From Candidatus Micrarchaeia archaeon (GTDB lineage Archaea; Micrarchaeota; Micrarchaeia; Norongarragalinales; CAINOH01): 64,000 nucleotides of DNA. Both the position numbers and the translations under genes were made by a program. The notes beneath the pieces are model-generated. The model was not told where the DNA came from. It saw only the letters and a program-made list of their open reading frames with translations, and searched no databases. The stretch is from the NCBI GenBank assembly GCA_041663565.1, contig JBAYMJ010000001.1, positions 1,259 to 65,258 on the forward strand, written 5' to 3'. This document shows, one piece after another, positions 3,788-42,325 of this stretch. Numbering within the stretch: the first letter of the stretch is position 1; every line of letters begins with the position of its first letter.

Positions 3788-4025
3788 GAACAGGTTTCGT
3801 TTTGGCAGTATAAAGCACTATTGGCCTGCGGCCCTGCAGGCAGTCGGGGGCGATGCCGCACTATTATAAATGGGGTTTTGCACTAAATATTGGTAAGAAA
3901 GTGAAAGGAAACCAAGCCCGCCGAAAGGCGCTTTGTTGTTTTTTGTTTAAGGCAACGGGTAACCGCGGCATCTGCCGTTCCTGTGCCAGTAAAAGTTTTT
4001 GACTAAAAGTAAGGAGTGGTTGAAT

Positions 4026-4745
4026 ATGTATCCTCCACAGCAGTCCCAATACGACCGCGCGATTACGGTATTCTCGCCCGACGGAAGGCTCTTCCAGGTC
4101 GAGTACGCACGCGAGGCCGTCAAGACCGGGAGCACAAGCATCGGGATTGTCAGCAAGGACGGGGTCGCGATGGTGGCGCACAAGCGCATATCCTCGCCGC
4201 TCATAGTCGGCGACTCGCACGAAAAGATATTCACAATAGACAACCACGTGATTGCATCCTCTTCGGGCCTTGTTGCCGACGCGCGCAAGCTAGTTGACTT
4301 CGCCCGGCTGGAGTCGCAGAAGCACAAGCTCACGTTTGACGAGGAAATCTCGGTCGAGTACCTTGCAAAGCAGGTGGGAGACCACATCCAGTTCTTCACC
4401 CAGGTCGCCGGAGTAAGGCCCTATGGAGTCTCGCTTCTGCTTGCAGGAGTGGGCACTACGGGCGCAAGGCTCTTTGAGACCGACCCCTCTGGTGCAATCT
4501 TTGAGTACAAGGCAACCGCCATCGGGAGCGGCAAGAAGGGAGTGGAGCAGTTCTTCGAGAAGGAGTACAAGGACGGCCTCTCGATGGACGACGCCATCAG
4601 GCTTGCAATCAAGGCGCTCAAGAAGGTGACCGAGGAGAAGCTCTCGCCGCAAGTGATTGACGTTTCAATAGTGGAGTCCAAGTCCAGGAAGTCGCGCGAC
4701 CTCTCAAACGACGAGGTTGCGAAGTTCATGGCGGACTCGAAATAG
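4026..4745 (+). CDS. psmA: proteasome subunit alpha
   Basis: YDRAITVFSPDGRLFQVEYAREAVK is the classical alpha-subunit N-terminus. ATG at 4026 is preceded by AAGGAGTGG. The ORF-track start at 3999 is a TTG. Confidence 0.95.
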   Translation: MYPPQQSQYDRAITVFSPDGRLFQVEYAREAVKTGSTSIGIVSKDGVAMVAHKRISSPLIVGDSHEKIFTIDNHVIASSSGLVADARKLVDFARLESQKHKLTFDEEISVEYLAKQVGDHIQFFTQVAGVRPYGVSLLLAGVGTTGARLFETDPSGAIFEYKATAIGSGKKGVEQFFEKEYKDGLSMDDAIRLAIKALKKVTEEKLSPQVIDVSIVESKSRKSRDLSNDEVAKFMADSK

Positions 4746-4773
4746 GCAGGAACAGCTTAGAGATAGAGGACTC

Positions 4774-5469
4774 ATGTCCCACATCGAAAACACCATAATC
4801 GCCCGGCTTGAGAAGGCCGGCGAGACGTTCGAGATTCTCGTGGACCCCAAGAAGGGTTACGAGTACAAGACGGGCGCCAAAAAGGAGCTTGACAACGTCC
4901 TGGTCTTCGAGGAAGTGTTCAAGAACGCCAACAAGGGCGAACGCCACACCGGCGCCGCGCTCAAGAAGGCGTTCGGGACTGAAGACGTCCGAGTCATCGC
5001 AGACGTCATCTTCAAGGATGGCGAGCTGCAGATTACGACCGACCAGAGGCGCAAGCTCCTGGAAGAGAAGCGTGTCAAGATAATCGCGCTGATTGCGCGT
5101 TCGGTAATAGACCCGCGCACCAAGGCGCCCCATCCGCCCGCAAGAATCGAGGCGGCAATGGAGCAGGCGCGGGTTCACATCGACGCGTTCAAGAACGCGG
5201 AAGAGCAGGTCTCAAAAATCATTGAGGAACTGCGGGAGATAATCCCCATCTCGACTGCTTCGGTGAAGGTGGCAATCAAGGTGCCGGCGAACTTCGTGCA
5301 CCGCTGCTACTCGACGCTGAAGGAATACGGGATAAAGAAGGAGGAGTACGCCTCGGACGGCTCGCTGGTCGTGATGATTGAAATCCCGGCAGCGTTGCAG
5401 GAAGAGGTGTACGACAGGCTGAACGGCCTGACGCAGGGCGCGGTCCAGACGCGGCTCGTGGACAGATAA
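4774..5469 (+). CDS. SBDS-family ribosome maturation protein
   Basis: MSHIENTIIARLEKAGETFEILVDPKKGYEYK... matches the SBDS/Sdo1 N-terminal FYSH-domain pattern. Occupies the conserved position between psmA and rrp4 in the archaeal superoperon. Start at the ATG at 4774. Confidence 0.9.
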   Translation: MSHIENTIIARLEKAGETFEILVDPKKGYEYKTGAKKELDNVLVFEEVFKNANKGERHTGAALKKAFGTEDVRVIADVIFKDGELQITTDQRRKLLEEKRVKIIALIARSVIDPRTKAPHPPARIEAAMEQARVHIDAFKNAEEQVSKIIEELREIIPISTASVKVAIKVPANFVHRCYSTLKEYGIKKEEYASDGSLVVMIEIPAALQEEVYDRLNGLTQGAVQTRLVDR

Positions 5470-5534
5470 AATTTGTTGGAATTCTGGAAGCAAAGAAGGA
5501 AAAATTCATTTTGATTTGGAAAAAGGTGCAACGA

Positions 5535-6203
5535 ATGGAAAAGCAACTGATATTGCCCGGCGCCATCGCGGCCACGTCGCCGCGAAGGATGGACGGGTGC
5601 TATGTTGACGACGGCAAGACCTTCGTCTCCGTTGTCAGCCTCAAGGCTGGCGACAAGATAATCCCCCTCAAGGGGCACTACGTGCCGCGCATCGGCGACT
5701 ACATAATCGGCATCATCTCGGAAGAGAGGTTCTCCGGCTATGAGGTCGACATCAACGCACCGTTCCCCTCCTCGATATCGGCCCGCGACATCCGCGAGAC
5801 GTTCCAGGTCGGCGACGTGGTATCGGCGAAGGTGCGCATGGTGGACGAGGTCCACACCGCGCAGCTTGTCGAGCCGCGCAAGCTCTACGCAGGCAGGCTC
5901 ATCGAGATTGAGAGCGTCAAGGTCCCGCGCGTCATCGGGCGCAACGGCAGCATGCTCGCGCTAATCAAGGAGTACACCGGCTCGGACATCTTCGTGGGCA
6001 AGAACGGCCGCATATACACCAAGAACGGCGACATCGCCCTCTCCGTGATGGCCCTGCTCAAGATTTCAAGCGAGGCGCACACGAGCGGCCTGACCGACCG
6101 CATCAAGGAGATGCTCGAGGTCGAGTCCAAGAAGTCGCCTCACTATGATGCGACTGCCCAGAAACCGGCGGTGCAGGAAAGGCAACCTGCAGAGACTTAC
6201 TAG
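5535..6203 (+). CDS. rrp4: exosome complex RNA-binding protein Rrp4 (S1 + KH)
   Basis: S1-like segment (GDYIIGIISEERFSGYEVDINAP...VGDVVSAKV) followed by a KH segment (VPRVIGRNGSMLALIKEYTGSDIFVGKNGRI). ATG at 5535 is preceded by AAGGTG. Confidence 0.9.
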   Translation: MEKQLILPGAIAATSPRRMDGCYVDDGKTFVSVVSLKAGDKIIPLKGHYVPRIGDYIIGIISEERFSGYEVDINAPFPSSISARDIRETFQVGDVVSAKVRMVDEVHTAQLVEPRKLYAGRLIEIESVKVPRVIGRNGSMLALIKEYTGSDIFVGKNGRIYTKNGDIALSVMALLKISSEAHTSGLTDRIKEMLEVESKKSPHYDATAQKPAVQERQPAETY

Positions 6204-6228
6204 AATAACATTTGAATGGTGATTTGAT

Positions 6229-7011
6229 ATGGCAGAAGAAGAGACAGCCGCGATGGCTTCAGGCAAGGCGCCCAAGAAGCTCATCGAGAACGGCATCCGC
6301 AACGACGGCCGCACGTCCTCGGACTTGCGCAACCTCAAGATTACTGTCGGAGTGCTCAAGAAGGCATCCGGCTCCGCTCTCATCGAGTGGGGGAAGAACC
6401 GCATCCTTGCCGGAGTATACGGCCCGCGCGAGGTGTTCCCCAAGCACAACATGAACCCCAACAAGGCCATCATCAACTGCAGGTATGCAATGGTGCCATT
6501 CTCGTCCCTTGAGGAGCACGGACGGTTCGGCCCCAACAGGAGGGCAATCGAGATTGGCAAGGTAGGAAAGCACGTGTTCGAGAACGCCATCCTTACCGAG
6601 CAGTTCCCCAAGACCATGATTGACATCAACATCGACGTGCTGCAGAGCGACGGAGGGACCCGCGTGGCGGGAATCGTCGCTGCATCGCTTGCGCTTGTTG
6701 ACGCCGGAATCCCGATGCGCGACATCCCCTGCGGAGTCTCGATTGGAAAGGTCGACGGCACCCTTGTCGCTGACCTGGACAAGACCGAGGACAACCTCGG
6801 GCAGTCCGACATGCCGGTCATATTCTCGCCCCGCACTTGGGACATCCTGCTCTTCCAGATGGACGGCATGCTGACCAAGAAGGAAATCATGGACGGCATC
6901 GACCTTGCACGCGTGGCGACCCAGAAGGTGCACGAGGTGCAGGTTGCTGCTCTCGAGGCAAAGTACGGCGCTGCGGCAGCAGGGGACGACGACTCGCAGG
7001 AGACTGCCTAA
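6229..7011 (+). CDS. rrp41: exosome complex exonuclease Rrp41 (RNase PH domain)
   Basis: RNDGRTSSDLRNLKITVGVLKKASGSALIEWGKNRILAGVYGPRE and QSDGGTRVAGIVAASLALVDAGIPM are RNase PH hallmarks. GGTGAT lies upstream of the ATG. Confidence 0.9.
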   Translation: MAEEETAAMASGKAPKKLIENGIRNDGRTSSDLRNLKITVGVLKKASGSALIEWGKNRILAGVYGPREVFPKHNMNPNKAIINCRYAMVPFSSLEEHGRFGPNRRAIEIGKVGKHVFENAILTEQFPKTMIDINIDVLQSDGGTRVAGIVAASLALVDAGIPMRDIPCGVSIGKVDGTLVADLDKTEDNLGQSDMPVIFSPRTWDILLFQMDGMLTKKEIMDGIDLARVATQKVHEVQVAALEAKYGAAAAGDDDSQETA

Positions 7012-7042
7012 GGGAAATTTGAACGGTTATTGGTGAAACTAT

Positions 7043-7813
7043 ATGATAACAAACGAGGTCAAGGAGGCATTCGTGCTTGACTTGATGAAGAAAAACACGC
7101 GAGTTGACGGCAGGGGAATGCTGGACTACCGCCAGATTTCAGTGACGAAGAACGTCTATGAGAACTGCGAAGGCAGCGCCATGGCGCAGATTGGCGACAC
7201 CAAGGTCATCGCAGGTCTCAAGCTGGACGTCGCGACTCCCTTCGGCGACAGGCCGACCCAGGGAGTCATAATGTTCAACGCCGAGTTCTCGCCCGTCGCG
7301 CACCCCGACTTCACTGCCGGGCCGCCGGACGAGCGCAGCATCGAGCTTGCCCGAGTTGTTGACCGCGGCATCCGCTCAGCGGAGTGCATCGACCTGGACA
7401 AGCTCTTCATGGAGGAAGGCAAGGTGCTCGGGGTGTTCATCGACCTTTTCATAATCGACCACAACGGCAACCTCACCGACGCGGCGTACCTTGCCTCGAT
7501 GGCGGCGCTCCGCACGGCAAAGATGCCCAAGTACGAGGATGGAAAGCTCATCCGCGAGGAGCGCACCGCTCCGCTTCCGATTGCGCGCGACGTCGTGTCG
7601 TGCACCTTCGAAAAGGTCGGCGACAAGCTTTTGCTCGACGCGCGCGAGGAGGAGGAAGTCTCGTCCTCAGGCCGCGTGACGCTGGCTACTTGCGGCGACG
7701 ACCTGTTCTGCGCATCGCAGAAGAGCGGACGCGCCGGCTTTACCCGCGCGGAGTTCGAAAGCATGATTGACACTTCCCTTGCAAAGCGCAAGGAGCTGCT
7801 CAAGTACATTTAG
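7043..7813 (+). CDS. rrp42: exosome complex component Rrp42 (RNase PH-like, non-catalytic)
   Basis: RVDGRGMLDYRQISVTKNVYENCEGSAMAQIGDTKVIAGLK is an RNase PH-like fold pattern. Follows rrp41. Confidence 0.9.
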   Translation: MITNEVKEAFVLDLMKKNTRVDGRGMLDYRQISVTKNVYENCEGSAMAQIGDTKVIAGLKLDVATPFGDRPTQGVIMFNAEFSPVAHPDFTAGPPDERSIELARVVDRGIRSAECIDLDKLFMEEGKVLGVFIDLFIIDHNGNLTDAAYLASMAALRTAKMPKYEDGKLIREERTAPLPIARDVVSCTFEKVGDKLLLDAREEEEVSSSGRVTLATCGDDLFCASQKSGRAGFTRAEFESMIDTSLAKRKELLKYI

Positions 7814-7824
7814 GGTGTAAGAAT

Positions 7825-8067
7825 ATGGGTTCACATTACGGAGTAAAAATACGCAAGCAGGAAAACAAAATTAAGACCGCGCAGAAGCTTCGGCACGCGT
7901 GCCCTTCCTGCGGCAAGGCCAAGGTCAAGCGCACCTCGACTGCGCTCTTTGAGTGCGCGTCGTGCGGGACGGTGTTTGCGGGCGGCACGTACGTCCCCCG
8001 CACCAACGTGGGAATCACTGCCGCAAAGCTGCAGTCATCCAAGAACGTGCAGGCAAAGGAAGAGTAA
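7825..8067 (+). CDS. rpl37ae: 50S ribosomal protein L37Ae (eL43)
   Basis: 80 aa. GVKIRKQENKI start and a CPSCG...CASCG zinc ribbon. Occupies the canonical position after rrp42. Confidence 0.9.
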   Translation: MGSHYGVKIRKQENKIKTAQKLRHACPSCGKAKVKRTSTALFECASCGTVFAGGTYVPRTNVGITAAKLQSSKNVQAKEE

Positions 8068-12772: not shown

Positions 12773-13248
12773 AATGGGAAGCAACCGATTTGATGGCCTA
12801 CACTCAAGCTCGAAAGCCATTTAAGCCGCGTCTGGAAAATACTCTTATGGCGAACGGATTCGCGTACCCAAGCGTTGAACAGGTTGAAGAGTTCAATATC
12901 TTGACGCTTGCAGTAATCCGGGCAAAGAAGGCGGATGCCCATAATACCCTTAGCGGGTCAAAAATATTGGAAGCCATAAGGGAATGCATGGACGCAAAAG
13001 GCGATGTTCACCAAAAAGCCGCGGCATTGATGGCCGCTTTGGTAAAAAAGCACCCTTTCGCAAGCGGCAACCGAAGAACCGCATTTATCGCGGCAAAGTC
13101 GTTCACATTGGCAAACGGGGGGCATTTTCGCATCCCGGACGAGCCTGCGAATGCGAAAGTAATGCGCGGGATAAGGGAAAACTTTTATACGCAGGAAGAG
13201 ATTTGCGAGTGGATAAAAAATGGAAAAATCAGGGAATTCACGCGTTAG
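12769..13248 (+). CDS. Fic/Doc family protein (death-on-curing-like toxin)
   Basis: HPFASGNRRTAF matches the Fic/Doc core motif HxFx(D/E)GN(G/K)R, with Ser in place of the acidic residue. Size is Doc-like. The ATG overlaps the aminotransferase stop (ATGA). An internal start at 12847 is possible. Confidence 0.75.
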   Translation: MKWEATDLMAYTQARKPFKPRLENTLMANGFAYPSVEQVEEFNILTLAVIRAKKADAHNTLSGSKILEAIRECMDAKGDVHQKAAALMAALVKKHPFASGNRRTAFIAAKSFTLANGGHFRIPDEPANAKVMRGIRENFYTQEEICEWIKNGKIREFTR

Positions 13249-13493: not shown

Positions 13494-13566
13494 GCTCTGA
13501 TAGTGTAGTGGACCAGCATACGGGATTGTCGATCCTGTGACCCGGGTTCGAATCCCGGTCAGGGCG
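13494..13566 (+). tRNA. tRNA-Asp (anticodon GUC)
   Basis: Folded by hand. Acceptor stem GCTCTGA/TCAGGGC; D arm GTGT-AGTGGACCA-GCAT; anticodon stem CGGGA/TCCTG with loop TTGTCGA (GTC); T arm CCGGG-TTCGAAT-CCCGG; discriminator G. No encoded CCA and no intron. Confidence 0.9.
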
Positions 13567-13586
13567 CTTCTTTTTCTTTACAAAAT

Positions 13587-15190: not shown

Positions 15191-16165
15191 TTATTCGCCA
15201 GATACAAGGGCAATCTTTTTTTTATCAATAAGTTCTTCTGGACTGAAAATAAGATGAAAATCATGGTGCTCATAGTTCTCTGCAACTATCCCAATAAATA
15301 TAGCAATTTGTTGCGCGTCATTATTTACTGAAGAAAAATTGTAAGTATTATTACGAACTTTAGGATAAAAGAATTTGAATGAATTATTTTGAAGTTTATG
15401 TTCGTTCGATACAATCGCACGTTTAGCACCCATAAACATAGTAGGCATATTAGCTATTTCGATTTGACCGGGTACTTCTGCCCTCAAGAAAGGAAGTTTG
15501 GCGTTGATTGTTCCTATTATCAACGGATATTTCGCACACGTTTTCCCAACATTTGTAATTATTAGTCTGAAAAATATTTGTTCGTAGTTATTTTCTTTAG
15601 ACAATTCTTCATCAAGAAGGATGAATGACTCGATAATAGGCCATTTCTTTTTTTGTTTAACTTCATAAAACTCTAGGGGAGACATGGGTCGATTTGTGCC
15701 GGCGTTGTCTCTCAGGGGATAGTTATTTGATATTTTTCCTGGTGCTTTAATTACGCTATCACTTTCATCCACAGTAATAATATACACACATTTGTTTTGA
15801 GAGATTGAAAGTGCTTTTACTGAAAGTTCCTTATTCAACGTAATCTCTGGAAGTTTCGCTCGAATACCGTTACTAATATCTTCGGCAGTAATATTTTCTG
15901 GAAGCCCAACCCAATCTTCCGGCAAATATTTTGCTGGACCCTTGTCGCCATTTTCTTGAGGTATACCAAGAAAAATTATTCCACCATCAGTATTTGCCAT
16001 TCCTGCTACTTTTTGGGCTAAATAAGCATAATCCGGACTAGACCCATTTGTATTTCTAAATTCGAAAAACAAACCTTCATACTTACCAGGTCTAAGCCAG
16101 CTACTTAGCTGGTCTACGGTAAGGCCTTCGAGATTTAAGTTAAACCGAGTTGTATTGAAGGACAT
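15191..16165 (-). CDS. AlbA_2 / Schlafen-like (divergent AAA_4) domain protein with an unknown C-terminal half
   Basis: EGLFFEFRNTNG...YLAQKVAGMANTDGGIIFLGIPQENGD matches the AlbA_2 pattern (E.EFK ... A(F/M)ANT.GG.(L/I).(I/L)G(V/I)). The C-terminal ~170 aa are unrecognised. Low-GC codon usage. Confidence 0.6.
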   Translation of the reverse strand: MSFNTTRFNLNLEGLTVDQLSSWLRPGKYEGLFFEFRNTNGSSPDYAYLAQKVAGMANTDGGIIFLGIPQENGDKGPAKYLPEDWVGLPENITAEDISNGIRAKLPEITLNKELSVKALSISQNKCVYIITVDESDSVIKAPGKISNNYPLRDNAGTNRPMSPLEFYEVKQKKKWPIIESFILLDEELSKENNYEQIFFRLIITNVGKTCAKYPLIIGTINAKLPFLRAEVPGQIEIANMPTMFMGAKRAIVSNEHKLQNNSFKFFYPKVRNNTYNFSSVNNDAQQIAIFIGIVAENYEHHDFHLIFSPEELIDKKKIALVSGE

Positions 16166-16454: not shown

Positions 16455-16542
16455 ATTAGACGGTAAAAAAAACACCGTAGAGATAGCGGAGCGTGTATCG
16501 GATTCTCCAACTACAATACTTGCTATAGAAATTCGATAGCTA

Positions 16543-17634
16543 TCATACACGCTTCACGCGAGTGTGCAAAAGTTCCTTTGCCTTCGCCCCGCCAATCTCG
16601 CCGAGGAACTCAGAATAGAGTGTCTTGAGCTCGGGGTTTTCGTCCGAAACCTTGAACTTTGCCGAGTCGTCAAGGCCGTAGAGCTTCTTCCTGCGCTTCT
16701 GCAGGAGTTCGGGGGTGGTTGCTGGCTGCCCCGCGCCACCCATGCACCCGCCCTGGCAGGCCATCACTTCGATGAAGTTGTACTTCTCGCGCAGCGCCTT
16801 GTCGGCAAGGATTGGCCCTGCGTTCTTGAGGAAGTGGATTACAAGGATTTTCACCGGGATTCCGCCGAGGTCAAAGGACAATTCGCGGACGTTGTCAAAG
16901 CCCCTGAGCCCTGAAACCACCGGCTCGCCAAGATTGATTCCCTTGATGTGGGCATAGTAGCGCAATGCCGCTTCGGACACGCCTCCGGTTGTTCCGAAGA
17001 TGCGCGCGCCGCCCGAGCCCAAGCCCATCAGGTTGTCGAAGTCACTTTCCTCACAAGAGGACAAGTCAAGTCCCTTTGCCTTCATCAGCTCGGAGATTTC
17101 CTTGGTGGTGATTACGTAGTCAACTGCTGCCTTGCCATCCGGAAGCTTCATATCAGCACGCTTGGCCTCAAGCTTCTTGATGAGACAGGGCATTGCCGCG
17201 ACCGAGTAAATCTTGGAAGCGTCGAGGTTTTTTTTCTGGGCGAAATAAGTCTTGATTAGCGCGCCCATCGCTTCCATCGGGCTCTTGGTGGTGGACATGT
17301 AGTCCATAAAGAGGTCGGGGTGCTTCTGCTCCAAAAAGAGCGCGAACCCGGGGCAACACGAATTAAGAAGCGGGAAGGGGCCGCCGTGCTCTATGCGCTC
17401 GACAAGCTCAGCAGCTTCCTCAAGCACGACCAAGTCAGCTGTGAAGTTGGTGTCAAAGACGTAGTCGAAACCAAGCTTGCGCAAGGCACCTACAAGCTGG
17501 CGGGTCACCTTTTCTGTTGGCGCGTCGTAGTTGAACGGCTCGCCTATTGCCACGCGAACAGCAGGGGCGACCTGGATTACCTTGGTGAGCGTCTTGTCGG
17601 AGAGTGCTTTTTCGAGTTCGGTAAAGTCAACCAT
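16543..17634 (-). CDS. [FeFe]-hydrogenase, H-cluster domain only (no N-terminal ferredoxin-like F-cluster domains)
   Basis: 363 aa with all three H-cluster signatures: L1 NSCCPGF (aa 91-97), L2 MPCLIKKLE (aa 148-156), L3 EVMACQGGCMGGAGQP (aa 289-304). Also has IFGTTGGVSEAALR and a small-subunit-like C-terminal tail. The protein begins right at the H-domain (KVIQVAPAVRVAIGE). Confidence 0.85.
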   Translation of the reverse strand: MVDFTELEKALSDKTLTKVIQVAPAVRVAIGEPFNYDAPTEKVTRQLVGALRKLGFDYVFDTNFTADLVVLEEAAELVERIEHGGPFPLLNSCCPGFALFLEQKHPDLFMDYMSTTKSPMEAMGALIKTYFAQKKNLDASKIYSVAAMPCLIKKLEAKRADMKLPDGKAAVDYVITTKEISELMKAKGLDLSSCEESDFDNLMGLGSGGARIFGTTGGVSEAALRYYAHIKGINLGEPVVSGLRGFDNVRELSFDLGGIPVKILVIHFLKNAGPILADKALREKYNFIEVMACQGGCMGGAGQPATTPELLQKRRKKLYGLDDSAKFKVSDENPELKTLYSEFLGEIGGAKAKELLHTRVKRV

Positions 17635-17649
17635 AGGAAATCACCAGGT

Positions 17650-18171
17650 TTACGCCTTGAAGCCAACTGCCTTGGTAGCGGCAAAGCCGCCCGCAAGCGC
17701 AGTTGCAAACTGGATTGGGCCCATCGCAAGAAGGAACGCTGCGGGAACAAATCCTGAAAGCACGAGCGCTCCGGCGGAGGCGAAGAGGATTCCTGATTTT
17801 GCAATCGAGGAGAACACCAGTCCCTTGCCCTTGATGAGCCAGACATAGGCTGCATTTGCCATCCAGATTGGGAGGATGAAGTAAAGGAGTGCGGCTGTTT
17901 GCGCCCCGAAGATGATTCCGGACACGTACGCGCCGATGCTGGGCACTATTATGAGCGGGAGGAGCTTGAGCCTGCTGCCCGATGCGTTCAGGGCGCAGTA
18001 TGCAAGGAGGAAGTTCACTATCGTGCCCACCAGGAGCTGGTTTGCGATGCCGGGCAAGAAGCCGAGCACGATTGGGACGAGGAACGCCGCAACGACATAC
18101 GGCATGGTTTCCCAAACGCCTTCAAAGCCCTGCTGGTATCTTGATGAAAACGCAAACTTCACGTGACTCAC
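17650..18171 (-). CDS. polytopic membrane protein (about 5 TM; vaguely ECF S-component-like)
   Basis: 173 aa, hydrophobic throughout. Its stop lies 15 nt upstream of the hydrogenase start on the same strand. No confident family assignment. Confidence 0.5.
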   Translation of the reverse strand: MSHVKFAFSSRYQQGFEGVWETMPYVVAAFLVPIVLGFLPGIANQLLVGTIVNFLLAYCALNASGSRLKLLPLIIVPSIGAYVSGIIFGAQTAALLYFILPIWMANAAYVWLIKGKGLVFSSIAKSGILFASAGALVLSGFVPAAFLLAMGPIQFATALAGGFAATKAVGFKA

Positions 18172-18233
18172 CTGTGACTTACTCAGGTTTGCATATATAG
18201 AAATACGTTTCTAAAGCCCCGCTTGGCGCTCAT

Positions 18234-19061
18234 TCAAAACCGCAGGAGCGACGCAAGGCCCAGTGCGAGCGCAAAACCGCAAATGAGCGAAAAAGCGGCA
18301 ACACGCTCGAAGCCGTGCCGGAAAGCGTCCGGCAGGAGCTCTACAAGCACCACGCAGAGCATCGCGCCTGCGGAGATTGCAAGTCCGAAGGGCACCACCC
18401 AGGACACGAGAACAAGAAGGCAGTAGCCAATAACAGCAGAAACTGCCTCTACAAGGCCGGACAGTATTCCGAACCAGATTGACTTCCGCTTCTGCATCCC
18501 AAAACAGGCGAGGGGAGCTGACACGCTCAGGCCTTCGGGGACGTCCTGCAGCGCCATCGAGAACGCGACCAGCCAGCCGAGGGGAGTCGAGCTCGCAAAG
18601 GCCGAGCCTATCGCCAGGCCTTCCGGGACGTTGTGCAACGTGACCGCCGCCGCAATCAGCGCGCCGTCCTTGTCGCCTGCGAGGGTGGTCTTGCGCTGCA
18701 GGTGCAGGTGGGGGAGCAGCTTCTCCAACGCAATGAACACGAGCGCGCCAAAAAGCAGGCACACGACTGCAAGGGGCCATCCTGAGGACTGCACCGCGCT
18801 GTCGAACATCTCGATTGCGGAGAACAGCATCACGCCTGCCGCAAACGAAAGCATCACCGAGTAGGTCCGGCGGTCCAGGCAGTCCACGAAAAGGACGACA
18901 AGCGAGCCCGCCGCTGTTGCAAAAAACACCAGAAGCGCTCCGAGCGCAGCGTCAATGAATGCCAAGGAAATCAGCCAGACGGAGGTTAACCCACTCCTTT
19001 GGGTTCGCAACGAATTAAAACAATCGCCAACTGCACTTACGTATGGCCAAACAACACGCAA
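18234..19061 (-). CDS. zupT: ZIP family metal (zinc) transporter, ZupT-like
   Basis: HNVPEGLAIGSAF and ALQDVPEGLSVSAPL are the paired ZIP signature motifs; multi-TM. The ORF-track start at 19061 is a TTG and overlaps the divergent gene at 19043. An alternative TTG at 19010 would remove the overlap. Confidence 0.8.
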   Translation of the reverse strand: MRVVWPYVSAVGDCFNSLRTQRSGLTSVWLISLAFIDAALGALLVFFATAAGSLVVLFVDCLDRRTYSVMLSFAAGVMLFSAIEMFDSAVQSSGWPLAVVCLLFGALVFIALEKLLPHLHLQRKTTLAGDKDGALIAAAVTLHNVPEGLAIGSAFASSTPLGWLVAFSMALQDVPEGLSVSAPLACFGMQKRKSIWFGILSGLVEAVSAVIGYCLLVLVSWVVPFGLAISAGAMLCVVLVELLPDAFRHGFERVAAFSLICGFALALGLASLLRF

Positions 19062-21720: not shown

Positions 21721-23766
21721 ATGCCCTTTGAACTCGTCTCGGAATACAAGCCTGCAGGAGACCAGCCGCAGGCAATAGCGAAGCTTGTGGAAGGCGTCTT
21801 GAAAGGGAACGGCTCGAAACAGACCCTGCTGGGAGTCACTGGATCCGGAAAAACATTTTCAATCGCCAACGTCATCGCAAAAACCGGAAAGAAGACGCTG
21901 ATAATCTCGCACAACAAGACCCTTGCTGCACAGCTTTATGGCGAGCTGCGGCAGTTCTTCCCAAAAAACAAGGTGGGTTACTTCGTCTCCTACTACGATT
22001 ATTTCCAGCCTGAAAGCTACATTCCCGCAACGGACACCTACATCGAAAAGGACGTGGACGTCAACGAGAAAATCGAGCAGATGAGGATAGCCGCTTCGGC
22101 GGCCCTGCTTTCGCGAGATGACGTAATCATCGTCGCAACTGTGTCCGCAATCTACGGCCTGGTCTCGCCAAGGGACTATATGGACATGTCCTACGAGCTG
22201 CACGTCGGAGAGAAAATCACGCGCCAGAAGCTGCTCAAGCAGCTTATTCAGATGCAGTACCAGCGGAGCGAGTACGACCTCGTCCCCGGAAAGTTCAGGG
22301 CAAAGGGCGACACTATAGACGTTTTTCCAATGTACAACACCGGAGCTTACATCCGCATATCGCTTTTTGGCGACGAGATAGAGTCGATTTCTGAACGCGA
22401 CTGCCTGAACAACAACAAGATTTCGTCAGTGCAGGTCCTCCGCGTCTTCCCTGCAAAGCTTTTCGTAATCCCGCAGGAGCGCATAAACAAGTCCTTGGAC
22501 GGCATCCGCGCGGAGCTTGCCGAGAGGCTGCCCCAGCTTTCCGAGCTTGAGAGGCACAGGCTCAAGCAGCGCACCGAGTACGACTTGGAGATGCTCAAGA
22601 ACACAGGGCACTGCAACGGGATTGAGAATTATTCAAGGTATATGGACGTCCGCGAACCGGGCATGCCGCCGCACTGCCTGCTTGACTTCTTCGGCGACGA
22701 CTTCCTGGTTGTGGTTGACGAGTCGCACATCACGCTCCCACAGATTACGGGAATGCAAAGGGGAGACCACGCACGAAAGAAGAACCTGATTGACTACGGC
22801 TTCCGGCTCCCAAGTGCCTACGACAACAGGCCGCTCACATTCACGGAATTTGAAAAGTACACCAAGAACGCAATCTACGTCTCTGCCACGCCGGCGGACT
22901 ATGAGTTCGAGCACTCCGACGTTGTTGTTGAGCAGCTGGTGCGTCCGACCGGCCTGCTTGACCCCAAGCCGGAAGTTCGTCCTACTGTTGGCCAAATCGA
23001 CGACTTGGTGCGCGAACTGAAGGAGTTGGACAAGAAGGGCTGGCGCGCGTTCGTCACAACCCTTACCAAGAGGATGGCAGAGGACCTCACGGACTACCTA
23101 ATCAGGGAGGGAATCAAGGCGCGCTATTTGCACTCCGAAATCGAGACCCTTGAAAGGACGGACATACTGCGCAGGCTGCGGCTGGGAGAATTCCAGGTGC
23201 TTGTTGGAATCAACCTGCTCCGTGAAGGGTTGGACATCCCCGAAGTCGCGCTTGTTGCCGTTTTTGACGCTGACAAGGAAGGCTTCCTGCGCAATGCGCG
23301 AAGCCTAATCCAGGTATTCGGCAGGGCCGCTCGCAACGTGGACGGCAAGGTCATAATGTACGCCGACCGCGTCACGGACTCGATGAAGCAGGCAATCGAG
23401 GAGACCACGCGCAGGCGCGCAATACAGGAAAAGTACAACACCGAGCACAACATCACGCCAAAGACAATTATCAAGGCTGTTGAGAAGACCGAGGCCGAGG
23501 TAGGCCAGACCAGGAATTACGCAAGGAGCGAGCTTGCGCGGCTAATCATCGACGTCGAGGCGCAGATGAAGAACGCGGCTGACGAGATGGACTTCGAGAC
23601 CGCAATACAGCTGCGCGACAAATTGGCGGACTTGAGAAAGCAGATGGGACAAAAGGAAAGAGATGCCGATTACCAGAAGAAAAAAATAGCGGACAAAGCC
23701 GAAGCAAAGATTGCGGCAAAAGCAGCTGCCAAGACGGCAAAGAAGACATCAAAGGCAAAGGAATAG
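21721..23766 (+). CDS. uvrB: excinuclease ABC subunit B
   Basis: MPFELVSEYKPAGDQPQAIAKLVEG...LLGVTGSGKTF (Walker A), DESH box (VVVDESHITLPQ), helicase motifs and a UVR domain near the C-terminus (DFETAIQLRDKLADLRK). 681 aa with a Lys/Ala-rich tail. Confidence 0.95.
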   Translation: MPFELVSEYKPAGDQPQAIAKLVEGVLKGNGSKQTLLGVTGSGKTFSIANVIAKTGKKTLIISHNKTLAAQLYGELRQFFPKNKVGYFVSYYDYFQPESYIPATDTYIEKDVDVNEKIEQMRIAASAALLSRDDVIIVATVSAIYGLVSPRDYMDMSYELHVGEKITRQKLLKQLIQMQYQRSEYDLVPGKFRAKGDTIDVFPMYNTGAYIRISLFGDEIESISERDCLNNNKISSVQVLRVFPAKLFVIPQERINKSLDGIRAELAERLPQLSELERHRLKQRTEYDLEMLKNTGHCNGIENYSRYMDVREPGMPPHCLLDFFGDDFLVVVDESHITLPQITGMQRGDHARKKNLIDYGFRLPSAYDNRPLTFTEFEKYTKNAIYVSATPADYEFEHSDVVVEQLVRPTGLLDPKPEVRPTVGQIDDLVRELKELDKKGWRAFVTTLTKRMAEDLTDYLIREGIKARYLHSEIETLERTDILRRLRLGEFQVLVGINLLREGLDIPEVALVAVFDADKEGFLRNARSLIQVFGRAARNVDGKVIMYADRVTDSMKQAIEETTRRRAIQEKYNTEHNITPKTIIKAVEKTEAEVGQTRNYARSELARLIIDVEAQMKNAADEMDFETAIQLRDKLADLRKQMGQKERDADYQKKKIADKAEAKIAAKAAAKTAKKTSKAKE

Positions 23767-23834
23767 GCAGGAAAAAGAAAAATAGAAGGCACAGGAGAAG
23801 TCAAAAAAACCAACAATAAGGGGAAGTAATCTTT

Positions 23835-26648
23835 ATGCAGGACAAAATCATCGTACGCGGCTGCCGCGAGCACAACCTCAAGAACGTCAACGTCGAGATA
23901 CCGAAAAACAAGCTGACCGTGTTCACCGGCATATCCGGCAGCGGCAAGTCCAGCCTCGCATTCGACACGATTTACGCGGAGGGCCAGCGCAGGTACGTCG
24001 AGTCGCTCTCGGCGTACGCAAGACAGTTCCTCGGGATGATGAGCAAGCCCGACATCGACTCCATAGAGGGGCTCTCGCCTGCAATATCCATCGAGCAGAA
24101 GTCTTCCTCGAACAACCCGCGCTCAACTGTGGGAACGATTACCGAAATCTACGACTACCTGCGCCTGCTTTACGCGCGCATCGGCGTGCCGCACTGCCCG
24201 GTGTGCGGGAACAAAATCTCAAGCACTACGATTGACGCGATAGTCACTGCGATAATGGCGCAGAAGCAGGGGACGAAAGTCCAGATCCTTTCCCCGGCAA
24301 TAGAGGGCAAGAAGGGCCAGTACGAGAAGTTCTTCGCCGACCTGTCAAGGCAGGGTTACTCGCGCGTGCGCGTTGACGGCGAGCTTTACGAAATCGGCTC
24401 GGAAATCAAGCTTGAAAAGAACGTCAAGCACTCCATCGAGGTTGTCGTTGACCGGCTTTCCATTGACGACACGCAAAAGCAGCGCGTGTACGACGCGGTA
24501 AGCACTGCGGTCAAGCTTTCCAAGGGCGCGGTAATCGCAATCATCGGCTCCGAGGAAAAGAGGTTCTCTACGCTGAACGCCTGCATCGAGCACGGCATCT
24601 CGATTGGCGAGCTTGAACCCCGGATGTTTTCGTTCAACGCGCCGTTCGGCGCGTGCCCGGAGTGCCACGGCCTTGGCGTGAAGCTTGAGTTCGACGAAGA
24701 TTTGATTATCCCGGACAAGACAAAGACGCTCCTGGAGGGCGCAATCGAGCCCTGGGGGAACAACTTCAACGGCTACCGCGCGCAGGCGCTGTCGAGCGTG
24801 GCAAAGCACGTCGGCTTTGACATGTACACGCCGGTGTGCAAGCTGTCCAAGAAGCACCTGCAAATCATACTCCACGGGACGGACGAGTCCATCCCCTTCA
24901 ACTACAAAGCGCGCAGCGGCACCTCGAAATGGTCCTACGTCGGCGGGTTCGAGGGCGTGGTGCCCCAGCTTGAGCGGCTCTACAGGGAGACCGACTCGCC
25001 CGAGCGCAGGCAGGACATGGAAAAGTACATGCGCGAGACGCTGTGCCCGGCCTGCAAGGGCGCGCGGCTCAAGCCCGAGATGCTATGCGTAAAAGTCGGA
25101 GACAGGAACATAATCGAGGTCACCGACCAGTCAATAGGAAAATGCCTGGAGTTCTTTGCCGAGCTCAAGCTCTCGGAGTACGAAAACAGCGTTGCGAAGA
25201 TGATACTCAAGGAAATCCGCGACCGCCTGCTTTTCCTGCACGAGGTGGGGCTTGACTACCTCACGCTCTCCCGAAAGGCGGGGACGCTTTCAGGAGGCGA
25301 ATCCCAGCGCATCCGGCTCGCCACGCAGATTGGAAGCAACCTCTCAGGCGTGCTGTACATACTCGACGAGCCCAGCATAGGCTTGCACCAGCGGGACAAT
25401 GAGAAGCTGATTGCAACCCTGAGGCGGCTCCGGGATTTGGGAAACACCGTAATCGTTGTCGAGCACGACGAGGACACCATACTCGCAGCCGACCACGTCG
25501 TTGAAATCGGGCCCGGCGCTGGAAAGCACGGCGGCCAGATTGTCGCAACCGGGACTCCCCTTCAAATCAAGCAGAACAAGGACTCGCTAACTGGCCAGTA
25601 CCTTGCAAAGCTCAAGACCATCCCACTTCCGCTTCACCGCAGGCCGATTGGCGACAAGTTCGTGACCGTGAAGGGCGCGAGGGAGAACAACCTCAAGAAC
25701 ATCGACGTCTCCTTCCCACTGGGCGTGTTCACGTGCGTGACCGGGGTAAGCGGCAGCGGAAAGAGCACGCTTGTTCTTGAGACGCTTGAGGCTGGCCTGC
25801 ACAAGCAGCTCTACAACGCGGGCTATTCCGTGGGAGCGCACGACAGCATCGAGGGAGTAGAGCACATAGACAAGGTAATCTCCATTGACCAGCAGCCAAT
25901 CGGGAGGACGCCCCGCTCAAACCCGGCCACATACATCGGCGTTTTCACCCAGATTAGGGAGCTCTTTGCCAAGACGCAGGACGCGCAGGTGCGCGGGTTC
26001 GGCCCCGGAAGGTTCTCGTTCAACGTAGCGGAGGGCAGGTGCCAGGACTGCGACGGAGACGGGCTGAAGAAGATTGAGATGCACTTCTTGGCGGACATCT
26101 TCGTTACCTGCGAGACCTGCAAGGGGAAGCGGTACGATTCCGAGACCCTTGAAATCGAGTACAACGGCAAGAACATAGCGGACGTGCTCGACATGACCAT
26201 CGAGGAGGCCGCCCAGTTCTTTGCAAAAATCCCGCAGGTAAAGAACAAGCTTGACACGCTGATGGACGTGGGGCTTGGCTACGTCAAGATGGGCCAGTCC
26301 GCGACCACGCTCTCCGGAGGGGAGGCCCAGCGCATCAAGCTCGCTGCGGAACTTTCCAAACGCGACACCGGAAGGACGATTTACGTCCTTGACGAGCCGA
26401 CCACCGGCCTGCACTTTGAGGACATCAAGAAGCTCCTTCTCGTGCTCCACAAGCTCGTTGACAAGGGAAACACGGTCATCGTAATCGAGCACAACCTTGA
26501 GGTCATCAAGACAGCTGACTACGTAATCGACCTGGGCCCGGACGGCGGCGACAAGGGCGGGATGGTAGTTGCAAAGGGAACGCCAGAGCAGGTGGCAAAG
26601 GTATCAAGCTCGCGCACTGCCGCGTTCCTAAAAAGGATGCTTTCCTGA
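23835..26648 (+). CDS. uvrA: excinuclease ABC subunit A
   Basis: [58 protein letters not shown]. Two ABC ATPase modules ([10 protein letters not shown]; [12 protein letters not shown] and [12 protein letters not shown]) and Zn modules ([19 protein letters not shown]...CETCKG). 937 aa. Confidence 0.95.
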
Positions 26649-26713
26649 CCGGATTCCCAGCAGTGAAAAGTATATAATAGAAGTTATACAAAGTAATACT
26701 TGAGGTTATACTT

Positions 26714-26980
26714 ATGTATGTCACGAGGAAAGTCGGGCCGAAAGGGCAAGTAGTGATTCCTGAAGAGCTTAGGGCGCAGTTCGACATACATCCCGGCACA
26801 TCAGTATCGTTCAATTCTAATGACGAAGCAATAATCATTGTCAGGCAAAAAAGCGCAGAACAGGTCCTTGATGCGTTTCACGCCATACGCGACGCGCCAA
26901 GCATCCGAAAGGCACCGACCATAAAGGAAATGAAACGCTGGTTCGAAGAGGAGATTGAGGAAAGAAATGGCATACGTTGA
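26714..26980 (+). CDS. vapB: AbrB/SpoVT-domain antitoxin (VapB-type)
   Basis: VGPKGQVVIPEELRAQFDIHPGTSVSF is the SpoVT/AbrB looped-hinge pattern. 88 aa. Overlaps the downstream PIN gene by 14 nt. Confidence 0.75.
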   Translation: MYVTRKVGPKGQVVIPEELRAQFDIHPGTSVSFNSNDEAIIIVRQKSAEQVLDAFHAIRDAPSIRKAPTIKEMKRWFEEEIEERNGIR

Positions 26981-27368
26981 CGCGAACATATTCATTTTCG
27001 CCATCGCCAAAGACGCACCCCAATCTGACGCATGCCTGTCGATTTTGGATGCAATAGTGCGCGGAAAAATTTCCGCCACAACATGCGCGCTCACATGGGA
27101 TGAGGTCATCCATGCCGTGAAACGTAACAAAGGGCAGGCAGAGGCAGTTGCGGCAGGAGAAGCGTTACTTGCAATCCCGCGACTTAAGATAATCCCAGCA
27201 GACCGAAAAACCCTCGCCCTTGCACAGAAAATTTGCACTACATATCGCAACAGTCCGCGCGACTCAATCCACGCCGCCTGCGCAATACTTGCTGGTGAAA
27301 GCGAAATCTACAGTTTTGACTCCGACTTCGACAAAGTAGGGGAACTCAAGCGCAAGGAACCGAAATAG
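26967..27368 (+). CDS. vapC: PIN-domain ribonuclease toxin (VapC)
   Basis: MAYVDANIFIFA (first acidic residue), a conserved Asp/Glu in WDEVIH, RDSIHAACA, and SFDSDFDKV give the PIN acidic quartet pattern. ATG at 26967 is preceded by GAGG. Confidence 0.8.
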   Translation: MAYVDANIFIFAIAKDAPQSDACLSILDAIVRGKISATTCALTWDEVIHAVKRNKGQAEAVAAGEALLAIPRLKIIPADRKTLALAQKICTTYRNSPRDSIHAACAILAGESEIYSFDSDFDKVGELKRKEPK

Positions 27369-27378
27369 CGGTGAAAAA

Positions 27379-28959
27379 ATGGTAAAGCCGTTCAACGCAC
27401 CGTCGCTTCCCGGAGTCTACCTGATGAAGGACGCAAAGGGCGAAATCATCTACATAGGCAAGGCCAAGGACATCAAAAAGCGCGTCGCGTCCTACTTTCG
27501 GGAGAACGCGGACCTGCCGGACAAGACGGTCAGGCAGGTGGCGGAGACCGACACCGTCGAGTTCATCGTGACCGACAACGAGGTCGAGGCGCTCGTGCTC
27601 GAGGCCAACCTCATACGCAAGAACAAGCCCAAGTACAACATCGACCTGAAAGACTCCTTCCGCTACGCTTACGTGCTTGTCACCGACGAGGACTACCCCC
27701 AGATGATCACCGTGCGAAAGCTTCCCGGGAAGGAACGGGGCAAGGTGCTCGGGCCGTTCGTGTTCGGCGAGCAGCGCGCAATAGCGATGAATGCGCTGCG
27801 CAAGACTTTCAAGATTAGGACGTGCAAGCACCTCCCGAAGCGCGAGTGCCTGCTCTACCACATCGGCCAGTGCTCGGGCCCCTGCATCGGAAAGATTTCC
27901 AAGCAAGACTACAAGGCGAACGTGGACTCCGCAGTCAGGAGCCTTGAGGGAAACAACGATGAGCTTATTTTGGAGCTTGCAAAGAGGATGGCCGACGCTT
28001 CGAAGAACCAGCGCTTCGAGGAGGCCCTGAGGCTCCGCGAACAAATCCGCGCGCTTGGCGGCATCGCCGAGGAGCAGAAGATGGAGCACCACCTCGCGTT
28101 CGACCAGGACTTCATCGGCTTTGCGGCCGACCGCACCAAGGCCTGCGGCCAGGTGTTCAACCTAACGCGCGGCACCATCAAGCAGAGGCAGACGTTCCGC
28201 TTCGACGCGACAGCCGACCTGGTGCCGCAGTTCCTGCGCGAATACTACTCCTACGCGCACATCCCGGAGGAAATCGTGATTGCAAACGAGCTCGAGGAGG
28301 CGCCTGCGCTTGAGGAGTACCTCTCAAAGAATGCGGGAAAGAAGGTGCACATCGTGGTGCCCAAGAAGGGCTCAAAGAAGGAGCTTCTGGACTTGGTGGA
28401 AAAGAACGCGGCAATCGCATTGAATACGACCATATCGCCAGCACTCGGAGAGCTCAAGTCCGCACTCAGGCTGCCTCTTCTTCCGCGGGTGATGGAGTGC
28501 TTCGACATCTCCAACCTCGGAAAGGAAAACACCGTCGCAAGCATGGTGCGGTTCAAGGACGGCTCGCCGGACAAGGACAACTACAGGCAGTTCAAGATGA
28601 GGACGCTGACCGGCCAGAACGACTTCGACGCAATCAAGGAAGCCGTAGGCCGCCGCTACCGCAGGCTGCTTGAGGAAAACCAGCAGCTTCCCGACCTGAT
28701 TGTAATCGACGGAGGCAAGGGCCAGCTTCACGCCGCAATAGAGGCCCTGCTTGAATTGGGCGAGCGCGACATACCGATAATCTCGCTTGCAAAACGCAAC
28801 GAGGAAGTCTATTTGCCCACGCGCAGCATGCCCATCGTGCTTGACAAGAAGAGCGCTGGGCTGAAGCTCCTGCAGGCAATCCGCGACGAGGCGCACCGCT
28901 TTGCCAAGCGCTACCACACGAAGCTGCGCACTGACGAGTTTATCGTGGAAAAGAGGTAA
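27379..28959 (+). CDS. uvrC: excinuclease ABC subunit C (short form; appears to lack the C-terminal (HhH)2 domain)
   Basis: GIY-YIG N-terminus (PGVYLMKDAKGEIIYIGKAKDIKKRVASYF), UVR domain (RFEEALRLREQIRAL) and an endonuclease V-like domain (IECFDISNL...). Ends ...LQAIRDEAHRFAKRYHTKLRTDEFIVEKR at 526 aa, about where the HhH domain begins in the ~600-aa bacterial proteins as I recall them. Confidence 0.9.
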   Translation: MVKPFNAPSLPGVYLMKDAKGEIIYIGKAKDIKKRVASYFRENADLPDKTVRQVAETDTVEFIVTDNEVEALVLEANLIRKNKPKYNIDLKDSFRYAYVLVTDEDYPQMITVRKLPGKERGKVLGPFVFGEQRAIAMNALRKTFKIRTCKHLPKRECLLYHIGQCSGPCIGKISKQDYKANVDSAVRSLEGNNDELILELAKRMADASKNQRFEEALRLREQIRALGGIAEEQKMEHHLAFDQDFIGFAADRTKACGQVFNLTRGTIKQRQTFRFDATADLVPQFLREYYSYAHIPEEIVIANELEEAPALEEYLSKNAGKKVHIVVPKKGSKKELLDLVEKNAAIALNTTISPALGELKSALRLPLLPRVMECFDISNLGKENTVASMVRFKDGSPDKDNYRQFKMRTLTGQNDFDAIKEAVGRRYRRLLEENQQLPDLIVIDGGKGQLHAAIEALLELGERDIPIISLAKRNEEVYLPTRSMPIVLDKKSAGLKLLQAIRDEAHRFAKRYHTKLRTDEFIVEKR

Positions 28960-40266: not shown

Positions 40267-40842
40267 TCAGGCAGTCGGGCCACGACGCTTGGGCGGCATC
40301 TTGCCCCGTTCAAACTCCTCAGGAGTCATGAACGGCTTGCCACCGGGGGGACGCCTATACAAACCGTCAAAAATTCCGACGAACTTTTTAGGATTGGAAA
40401 GAATAACAGAAGTTACGTTCCGCTCTGAGCTTTCCTTAAGCGTCGCCAATTTTTTTGCAACTACGTCACGCAGGCCGGAACTATAAAAACCGCCTTTCAA
40501 ACGCTCCTTGTTCTGTGCAACTATTTCCGCAAGCTGATTAGCGCGCTGCTGGGGAAGGTCAAAACCGTGCTTGAGGAGCAGGCGGGTAAAAGCCTTCACC
40601 TGCTCAGAATTACGAGTCTCAACAAAACGATCAAAATGGGTGGACACCGCAGTACCGTCAATCTCCTTATCTACGATAGGTTCAGATCGCAGCGCACTAA
40701 TCTCCTGCAACTCATCAGGAGTATAAGCGGGGCGTTCGACTTCTTCCGCCGCCGCAGCCTCGGCGGCCTTAATCTCTTCTACCCGCTTCTTAGCCCCAGG
40801 CTCACGGGCAAGACGCGCAAGAATATCTAATACGTTTCCCAC
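40267..40842 (-). CDS. 191-aa protein, tandem paralog A (unknown family)
   Basis: GTG start at 40842 preceded by GAGGGAGA. (M)GNVLDILARLAREPGAKKRVEEIKAAEAAA...LLLKHGFDLPQQRANQLAEIV...RRPPGGKPFMTPEEFERGKMPPKRRGPTA. Confidence 0.6.
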   Translation of the reverse strand: MGNVLDILARLAREPGAKKRVEEIKAAEAAAAEEVERPAYTPDELQEISALRSEPIVDKEIDGTAVSTHFDRFVETRNSEQVKAFTRLLLKHGFDLPQQRANQLAEIVAQNKERLKGGFYSSGLRDVVAKKLATLKESSERNVTSVILSNPKKFVGIFDGLYRRPPGGKPFMTPEEFERGKMPPKRRGPTA

Positions 40843-40969
40843 AGAAATCTCCCTCTCAACCGCACACGAAAGACTCCAGAACAGAATTCACGACCAACTG
40901 CTCAATAAAGGAGAAATATGCCCCCAGCTATAAATAAAGAAGGGATAAAGAAAAAGAGAAAAGACAAAA

Positions 40970-41545: not shown

Positions 41546-41555
41546 AGTAATCTCC

Positions 41556-42312: not shown

Positions 42313-42325
42313 AGAAATCTCCCTC

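Follow-up and report, generated by a model that had tools for sequence, protein, structure and literature searches.

A minimal group A [FeFe] hydrogenase and its conserved membrane-protein neighbour hyd6TM in a Micrarchaeia genome

The stretch of DNA analysed here (the window; 64 kb of contig JBAYMJ010000001.1, from a Candidatus Micrarchaeia metagenome-assembled genome, MAG) contains a gene for a minimal [FeFe] hydrogenase, hydA (16543..17634, minus strand), and directly upstream of it a gene for a small membrane protein, hyd6TM (17650..18171, minus strand). The hydA open reading frame (ORF) is intact, begins with ATG and encodes 363 residues; Pfam domains (PF02906 and PF02256), motifs and sequence matches identify the product as an H-domain-only, M1-type group A1 enzyme. 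The product of hyd6TM is a six-helix membrane protein of 170–173 residues, recognized from an AlphaFold2 model and from the linkage of its family to hydA. Its ORF gives 173 residues from a GTG at 18171, but the NCBI entry and most homologues start three codons later, at the probable GTG start at 18162, giving 170. A first-pass annotation of the sequence had described this neighbour as a 173-residue protein with about five transmembrane helices, ending 15 nucleotides upstream on the same strand; spacing, strand and the length from the first GTG stand, but the model has six helices and the likely start lies three codons further in.

The end of hyd6TM and the hydA ATG are separated by exactly 15 nucleotides (17635..17649, minus strand), which include a Shine-Dalgarno-like GGTGAT at 17640-17645, five nucleotides before the start codon. 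A spacer of 14–15 nucleotides with a TGGTGA core a few nucleotides before the ATG is kept in the close relatives at loci L006, L008, L010, and L011, even where the flanks differ (L010). Because the spacer is short and TGGTGA is conserved, co-transcription and coupled translation of the two genes are likely. A TATA-box-like element, TTTCTATATATG (18192..18203, minus strand), lies 20–30 nucleotides upstream of the hyd6TM start and is a putative archaeal promoter; the stretch around it, TTTAGAAACGTATTTCTATATAT, is conserved in L006. About 70 nucleotides past the hydA stop codon, a run of eight T residues (16465..16472, minus strand) forms a putative archaeal oligo-T terminator. The two genes are probably transcribed as one bicistronic message.

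The H-domain of HydA is matched by Pfam PF02906 (Fe_hyd_lg_C) over residues 19–301 (E 1.4e-78; 264.4 bits against a cut-off of 22.1; profile positions 4–245 of 245) and is followed by a match to PF02256 (Fe_hyd_SSU) over residues 309–359 (E 4.6e-16). All three H-cluster motifs, as first annotated for the 363-residue protein, are in place: L1 is N91-S-C93-C94-P-G (NSCCPG), L2 is M148-P-C150-L-I-K153-K (MPCLIKK), and L3 is M291-A-C293-Q-G-G-C297-M-G-G-A-G-Q-P (MACQGGCMGGAGQP). The protein contains six cysteines in all (93, 94, 150, 194, 293, and 297), so that an accessory Fe-S cluster is impossible. Four of these, C94, C150, C293, and C297, are the ligands of [4Fe-4S]H, in motifs that align with those of solved enzymes, and we take them to be the counterparts of CpI C300, C355, C499, and C503. 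The Lys of L2 and the Met residues of L2 and L3 are also kept. The proton-relay set, assigned by motif alignment to solved group A enzymes and not by structure, is complete: C93; E73, E76, and R80 in EEAAELVER (residues 72–80); and S114 in MSTTKSP (residues 113–119). Together these presumably correspond to CpI C299, E279, S319, E282, and R286, a proton-transfer chain that is altered in the sensory groups of [FeFe] hydrogenases. No Fer4, Fer2, or other Pfam match was found N-terminal of the H-domain, which is preceded by 18 residues, and there is no room for a missed N-terminal domain since the upstream gene stops 15 nucleotides before the ATG. The absence of N-terminal ferredoxin-like domains, claimed at first annotation, is thus confirmed.

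HydA is 100% identical to NCBI entry MFA6329072.1 ('[Fe-Fe] hydrogenase large subunit C-terminal domain-containing protein') and belongs to a clade of about 22 H-domain-only proteins of roughly 300–385 residues (nearly all 350–385), with top matches 50–100% identical. Named members are Micrarchaeota at 83–86% identity and Iainarchaeota at 51%. The next-best matches outside the minimal clade are bacterial group A enzymes of 570–590 residues at 44–49% identity, and HydA and the archaeal minimal proteins form one cluster in a crude neighbour-joining tree calculated without support values. A search of PDB sequences matched group A H-domains at E values of 1e-84 to 1e-72 (HydA2 of the hydrogen-dependent CO2 reductase, HDCR; bifurcating HydA1; CrHydA1; DdH; CpI), with L1, L2, L3, and the relay region lining up with these solved enzymes. 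The bacterial group A proteins (HDCR HydA2, 7qv7_D; bifurcating HydA1, 8a6t_A; CpI, 4xdc) match over the whole H-domain and C-terminal tail with all catalytic motifs kept, but carry about 90–285 residues ahead of the H-domain with ferredoxin-like domains that are absent from HydA. Chlamydomonas reinhardtii HydA1 (M1-type; PDB 3lx4 / 6gm5), matched at E about 1e-76, also consists of an H-domain only and has no F-clusters. The algal enzyme has 442–457 residues in solved constructs against 363 here, and its match is split in two (best: query 5–257, chain 18–280), which fits an algal insertion lacking in HydA. In Chlamydomonas, HydA1 receives its electrons directly from ferredoxin, and the maturases HydEF and HydG are present.

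Greening et al. (2024, Cell 187:3357, PMC11216029) described minimal group A1 [FeFe] hydrogenases, on average 363 residues long, from Micrarchaeota, Iainarchaeota, and Nanoarchaeota. The earlier remark that minimal forms had recently been reported from DPANN-type lineages was therefore right, and the reported class is exactly that of the window: phylum-level host, H-domain-only build, length, hyd6TM neighbour, and lack of nearby maturases are the same, the window sequence coming from a more recently deposited MAG (MFA6329072.1). After artificial maturation with [2Fe]adt, both the Micrarchaeota enzyme 'Mu' (UBA95 sp002499405) and 'Ia' (Ca. Iainarchaeum andersonii) were shown to produce H2, 'Mu' at about half the rate of CrHydA1 (PMC11216029). 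The same study defines ultraminimal group E [FeFe] hydrogenases of DPANN archaea, with a mean of 286 residues and condensed loops, as a separate clade beside sensory group C (PMC11216029). Group E enzymes resemble HydA in their DPANN hosts and H-domain-only build, and group E genomes have no maturases; they are about 80 residues shorter, whereas HydA is a group A protein with a small-subunit-like C-terminal tail. The neighbouring gene is the same entity as the "hyd6TM" (hydrogenase-associated 4-6-TM protein) named and shown in Fig. 2A of that study and left uncharacterised there (PMC11216029); the term was not found in the literature searched beyond it. Since the enzyme, its hyd6TM neighbour, and the missing maturases are all in PMC11216029, these points are already known, and the window represents one more Micrarchaeia member. 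New here are the extent of the hyd6TM family, its linkage to HydA across architectures, its residue conservation, a weak likeness to S-components of energy-coupling factor (ECF) transporters, and its co-occurrence with maturases at one locus, L031.

An exhaustive profile search gave a hyd6TM family of 335 clusters at 50% identity (197 at E <= 1e-10), nearly all of 160–200 residues; named members are from Micrarchaeota, Nanoarchaeota, Woesearchaeota, and one 'bacterium'. The window protein has no match in Pfam, NCBIfam, or PDB sequences, and 14 close and 18 distant family members likewise have none in Pfam or NCBIfam; a profile search of PDB sequences returned chance matches only. Longer members have N-terminal extensions without annotation, one of which includes a zinc-ribbon-like CxxC...CxxC stretch, and no annotatable domain fusions were found among them.

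The genomic positions of family members tie hyd6TM to HydA. It lies directly upstream of hydA in 6/6 loci fetched via three close homologues, three of the contigs holding only a partial hydA. Four distant homologues (34–46% identical) all adjoin a HydA of another type: one is divergent from hydC-hydB-hydA (L013), one, from a Woesearchaeota MAG, heads a hyd6TM-hydC-hydB-hydA operon (L014), one stands beside a 260-residue H-domain on a bacterial-looking contig (L015), and one occurs with a divergent minimal hydA (L012). Among GTDB species representatives, a scan yielded 80 loci; its alignment was built from the subset sharing Y[MFL]IPFIWxG, and the sample is consequently biased to that subfamily. 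Of the 80 loci, 54 have HydA near hyd6TM; when the count is confined to the 28 loci whose flanks reach at least 6 kb in both directions, it is 24. A single-copy gene in a genome of ~1 Mb would be expected in such a span by chance about 2% of the time. The MAG behind one of the four exceptions (L074) carries a second hyd6TM copy (L081) beside hydA. The suggestion at first annotation that the neighbour could be a partner thus holds in the sense of a conserved partner gene.

HydC (53 loci) and HydB (49 loci) are the only other conserved neighbours, and the family is found beside A3-type hydCBA loci as well as minimal hydA genes. No new maturase candidate emerged among the neighbours, the remaining recurrent clusters being overlapping-frame artefacts or housekeeping genes in at most 10 loci. 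The orientation of hyd6TM varies: divergence from hydCBA is the commonest arrangement, and convergent and co-directional ones occur too. HydAs linked to hyd6TM are spread over at least four separate clusters, and three of these are different minimal lineages (again in a crude neighbour-joining tree without support), so that the linkage tracks the H-domain and not one lineage or complex type. The linkage of hyd6TM with [FeFe] hydrogenases as a conserved partner gene is clearly real; it is seen mostly in DPANN archaea, and a few of the loci are labelled as bacterial.

Record titles label about 25 of the 80 loci as Woesearchaeota, 11 as Nanoarchaeota, 9 as Micrarchaeota, and 4 as Iainarchaeota/Diapherotrites, with Altiarchaeota and Forterrea also present; a further 22 are labelled 'Methanosarcinales' (21 of them 'uncultured' third-party annotation, TPA, bins) and 3 as bacteria, including one Saccharibacteria. 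The 'Methanosarcinales' hyd6TM proteins (within L016-L095) are about 42–53% identical to the scan query P0293, which is probably from Micrarchaeota; this is the same range as for the Woesearchaeota and Nanoarchaeota loci, and most have HydA nearby. These labels look doubtful. At L015, the 260-residue H-domain protein (6518-7300, plus strand) overlaps the end of the hyd6TM homologue on a contig with sigma-70, OmpR-type, and HisKA genes. This protein is found on at least 24 contigs, has the motifs TSPCA, GPCIVKKKE, and FCEGGCINGPG, apparently lacks an equivalent of the proton-relay Cys, and is shorter than the group E mean of 286 residues.

The AlphaFold2 model of hyd6TM, calculated from a 113-sequence alignment, comprises six long helices (predicted local distance difference test, pLDDT, 89; predicted template-modelling score, pTM, 0.83). 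Apart from K125, the Lys and Arg residues are all confined to the two termini and to the 2-3 and 4-5 loops, and by the positive-inside rule this placement indicates a six-helix topology with both termini inside (N-in, C-in). Eight residues are invariant across the family (Q45, G49, N53, P77, W103, N106, K125, and P143) and five are nearly so (S78, G85, G89, Q154, and T157). The conserved residues fall inside helices or in the charge-free loops that connect them. In the 4-5 loop, predicted to be cytoplasmic, length differs by ~10 residues among subfamilies. Such a pattern would be more in keeping with ligand binding or transport than with a passive anchor. No position is conserved as Cys or His throughout the family, one His being present in about half of the members, and hyd6TM therefore cannot carry haem or an Fe-S cluster. 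A role as a cytochrome-like electron-transfer partner was rejected on this ground.

Foldseek searches of the PDB with two hyd6TM models returned nothing at E <= 0.001, with all E values above 0.2. By full-length TM-score, the best matches are 5edl (0.46; probability 0.96) and TmRibU, 5kbw (0.54/0.55; root-mean-square deviation 4.8). Both are ECF S-components (5edl is YkoE), which share with hyd6TM a length of about 170–200 residues, six helices, and the N-in/C-in arrangement, but differ in that no sequence or profile match, no significant Foldseek E value, and no nearby ECF T or A genes connect the two. The predicted resemblance is weak and is taken as a lead, not a classification.

The first-pass annotation had noted the absence of hydE, hydF, and hydG, and this stands for the 64-kb window: no ORF of useful size has a radical-SAM CxxxCxxC motif, and there is no HydF-like GTPase, P-loops being present only in UvrA, UvrB, and one 73-residue ORF in an alternative frame. 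HydEFG are absent from 122/130 archaeal genomes that carry an [FeFe] hydrogenase, and a HydEFG-independent 'alternative maturation pathway' has been postulated for archaea but not identified (PMC11216029). L031 (CAZSRD010000020.1, 68-8522), an archaeal-labelled contig, represents a rare kind of archaeal locus in which canonical maturase genes lie in cis. Here, hyd6TM is divergent from hydC-hydB-hydA, with an Lrp-type regulator on the opposite strand, followed by hydG (541 bits against a cut-off of 312, TIGR03955), hydE (341 against 255, TIGR03956), and a probable hydF scoring near threshold (320 against 326). Because hyd6TM is present together with these genes, it is not simply a maturase substitute. 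The proposal that hyd6TM replaces HydEFG was downgraded accordingly.

We read the locus as a native Micrarchaeia two-gene operon, hyd6TM-hydA, encoding a catalytically competent minimal group A1 hydrogenase and a conserved accessory membrane protein, and put the probability of this joint reading at about 85%. HydA would consist of an H-domain with a fused small-subunit-like C-terminal tail and would bind a single H-cluster through C94, C150, C293, and C297, with protons relayed by C93 and the Glu/Glu/Arg/Ser chain. Since it has no accessory Fe-S clusters, it would most likely take electrons directly from soluble reduced ferredoxin, as does algal HydA1, and would release H2 to dispose of fermentative reducing equivalents, production being the presumed direction. 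The membrane protein would more likely bind or transport a small molecule needed by the hydrogenase than wire electrons, and passive anchoring appears less likely.

Several points weigh against this reading. The archaeal group A1 enzymes were modelled as monomeric H-domains without extra clusters (PMC11216029), and hyd6TM is tied to HydA by gene linkage alone. Three more distant members of the HydA clade have no adjacent hyd6TM: none lies within 6 kb at L003 and L004, and at L005 the gene is 3.4 kb downstream. HydA evidently does not need hyd6TM in cis. The 64-kb window has no ferredoxin, pyruvate:ferredoxin oxidoreductase (PFOR), or maturase gene, and the ferredoxin motif CxxCxxCxxxCP was not found in it. 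In HydA itself, L1 reads NSCCP in place of TSCCP and L3 GGAGQP in place of GGGGQP, both apparently minor variants. Finally, H2 evolution has been seen in homologues of HydA, and the competence of HydA itself is judged from its sequence.

What hyd6TM contributes to such an operon can be explained in more than one way. It may be, though this is rather unlikely, that it is a passive anchor or docking platform holding HydA, or HydABC elsewhere, at the cytoplasmic face of the membrane. An integral six-helix protein that is tightly coupled in translation to hydA, has no cofactor ligands, and stays linked to the H-domain irrespective of the accompanying subunits, is consistent with this role. Docking would, however, require the predicted cytoplasmic loops, and it is these that vary in sequence and length, the conservation being found in the helices and charge-free loops. 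Moreover, hyd6TM is mostly divergent from or convergent with the hydrogenase genes, unlike the gene of a stoichiometric subunit, and the group A1 enzymes have been treated as monomeric (PMC11216029).

Slightly less likely again is an S-component-like transporter or binder that supplies iron, a sulfur or ligand precursor, or a scavenged cofactor fragment, and so aids HydEFG-independent maturation. The conserved polar residues inside the membrane helices, the six-helix topology with both termini inside, and an S-component as the best full-length structural match of two independent models all point this way. The family is nearly confined to DPANN archaea, lineages with reduced genomes (a few loci are bacterial-labelled), most archaeal genomes with hydrogenases have no HydEFG (PMC11216029), and besides HydB and HydC, hyd6TM is the sole conserved gene at hydrogenase loci. 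A ZIP gene lies just upstream in the subclade of the window, and ZIP and FUR genes lie near hydA in L004. Against this stand the lack of a significant Foldseek match, the lack of any sequence match to S-component families in Pfam and NCBIfam or to PDB chains, the absence of ECF T or A genes from the window and from the conserved neighbours, and the co-occurrence of hyd6TM at L031 with hydCBA, genuine hydG and hydE genes, and a hydF that scores close to its threshold. A role of hyd6TM in cofactor or metal supply or in maturation, taken on its own, is unlikely on present evidence. The fullest version, in which hyd6TM would be the missing accessory factor of DPANN [FeFe] hydrogenases, an S-component-like protein that imports or delivers iron or a precursor of the H-cluster, perhaps scavenged from a host, as part of the alternative maturation pathway, is a long shot.

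For HydA, the alternative that it is a non-catalytic homologue, whether Narf/Nar1-like or a sensory group C/D protein, had been raised at first annotation and is very improbable. The protein is small and has no partner genes, and its L1 begins with Asn and not Thr; but none of the H-cluster Cys residues is missing, the proton relay is complete (its Cys and the Glu/Glu/Arg/Ser chain), Pfam detects neither a PAS domain nor an extra Cys-cluster domain, and members of the same archaeal A1 class produced H2 (PMC11216029). The best NCBIfam models are those of catalytic group A, at 394 bits (NF040763, A6) and 327 bits (TIGR02512), as opposed to 135 bits for group B1. Both group A scores are below the full-length cut-offs of 765 and 405.95 bits, respectively, because the N-terminal domains are absent, and so reflect architecture and not divergence of the H-domain, which is the part aligned (profile positions 212–568 of NF040763 and 74–375 of TIGR02512). 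As judged from motifs and profiles, HydA is a catalytic-type (group A) H-domain-only [FeFe] hydrogenase and not a Narf-like or sensory form.

The host is a genuine archaeal genome (Ca. Micrarchaeia MAG, DPANN). The window contains genes for proteasome alpha (3999-4745), SBDS (4717-5469), the exosome subunits Rrp4 and two RNase PH-type (Rrp41/Rrp42-like) proteins (5511-7813), and L37ae (about 7825-8067). The first description of the flanking genes as archaeal is valid at this level, but not for the immediate flanks of hydA and hyd6TM (CNNM/CBS, AlbA_2-like, ZIP, SBP_5, and UvrABC genes), which are not diagnostic of archaea on their own. Both genes are genome-typical in composition (hydA GC 0.56 and third-position GC, GC3, 0.71; hyd6TM 0.57 and 0.68). 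hydA is located about 150 kb inside a 253,792-bp contig with archaeal markers, and the gene order UvrB-SBP5-ZIP-hyd6TM-hydA-...-CNNM recurs in independent assemblies from other samples, one of them a 1.2-Mb contig. A bacterial/archaeal chimera was the second doubt raised at the outset. An origin of hydA in bacterial DNA that was wrongly assembled or binned with an archaeal contig can be dismissed, as can its very recent transfer, since the composition is native, the synteny recurs, and the contig bears archaeal markers, and since the lower GC across 12–18 kb of the window that might suggest it stems from the adjacent AlbA_2-like gene (GC 0.36) and not from hydA or hyd6TM, even if the closest non-minimal relatives of HydA are bacterial group A enzymes. 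An old bacterial origin of the minimal HydA clade (PMC11216029) is a distinct matter and is likely.

The AlbA_2-like gene directly downstream of hydA (15191-16165, minus strand; 324 residues, Schlafen/AlbA_2-like) has a GC of 0.36 and a GC3 of 0.28, against 0.57 and 0.70–0.82 for the genome, and is for that reason a recently acquired foreign insert. Between hydA and CNNM, where the window has this gene, the relatives L006 and L008 carry a Peptidase_M49 gene and a gene encoding 658 residues. A ZIP-family metal transporter gene (18234-19061, minus strand) lies 62 nucleotides upstream of hyd6TM on the same strand and is kept in L006 and L008. At the distant minimal-HydA locus L004 (7457-8669), a FUR regulator gene and a ZIP gene are found just downstream of hydA. 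The nearness of ZIP and FUR genes to hydA may reflect a link to iron or metal supply, or may be coincidence.

Elsewhere in the window, a complete bacterial-type excision-repair set, UvrB-UvrA-(toxin-antitoxin pair)-UvrC (21721-28959, plus strand), is syntenic with the hydrogenase locus in relatives; the pair between uvrA and uvrC comprises a MazE antitoxin and a PIN toxin (26714-27368, plus strand). A Fic/DOC-family gene (12847-13248, plus strand) is found near tRNA-Asp (13494-13567). One third of the window is taken up by three consecutive giant ORFs (42994-63998, minus strand) of 2886, 2410, and >1634 residues, the last running past the window end. Just downstream of these is a stretch of lower GC (0.50; 40267-42982, minus strand) with four ORFs of 191–218 residues without a Pfam match.

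Among group A [FeFe] hydrogenase scaffolds with catalytic activity, that of the class to which HydA belongs is the smallest, and the description of this class in 2024 overturned the view that archaea lack [FeFe] hydrogenases. Besides HydB and HydC, hyd6TM, which has no Pfam family, is the one gene that consistently accompanies [FeFe] hydrogenases, of several architectures, in DPANN lineages. For the assembly or servicing of the H-cluster in archaea without HydEFG, it is the candidate to consider first, whether as a tether, a transporter, or a maturation aid. If an S-component-like supply role proved true, hyd6TM would explain part of HydEFG-independent maturation.

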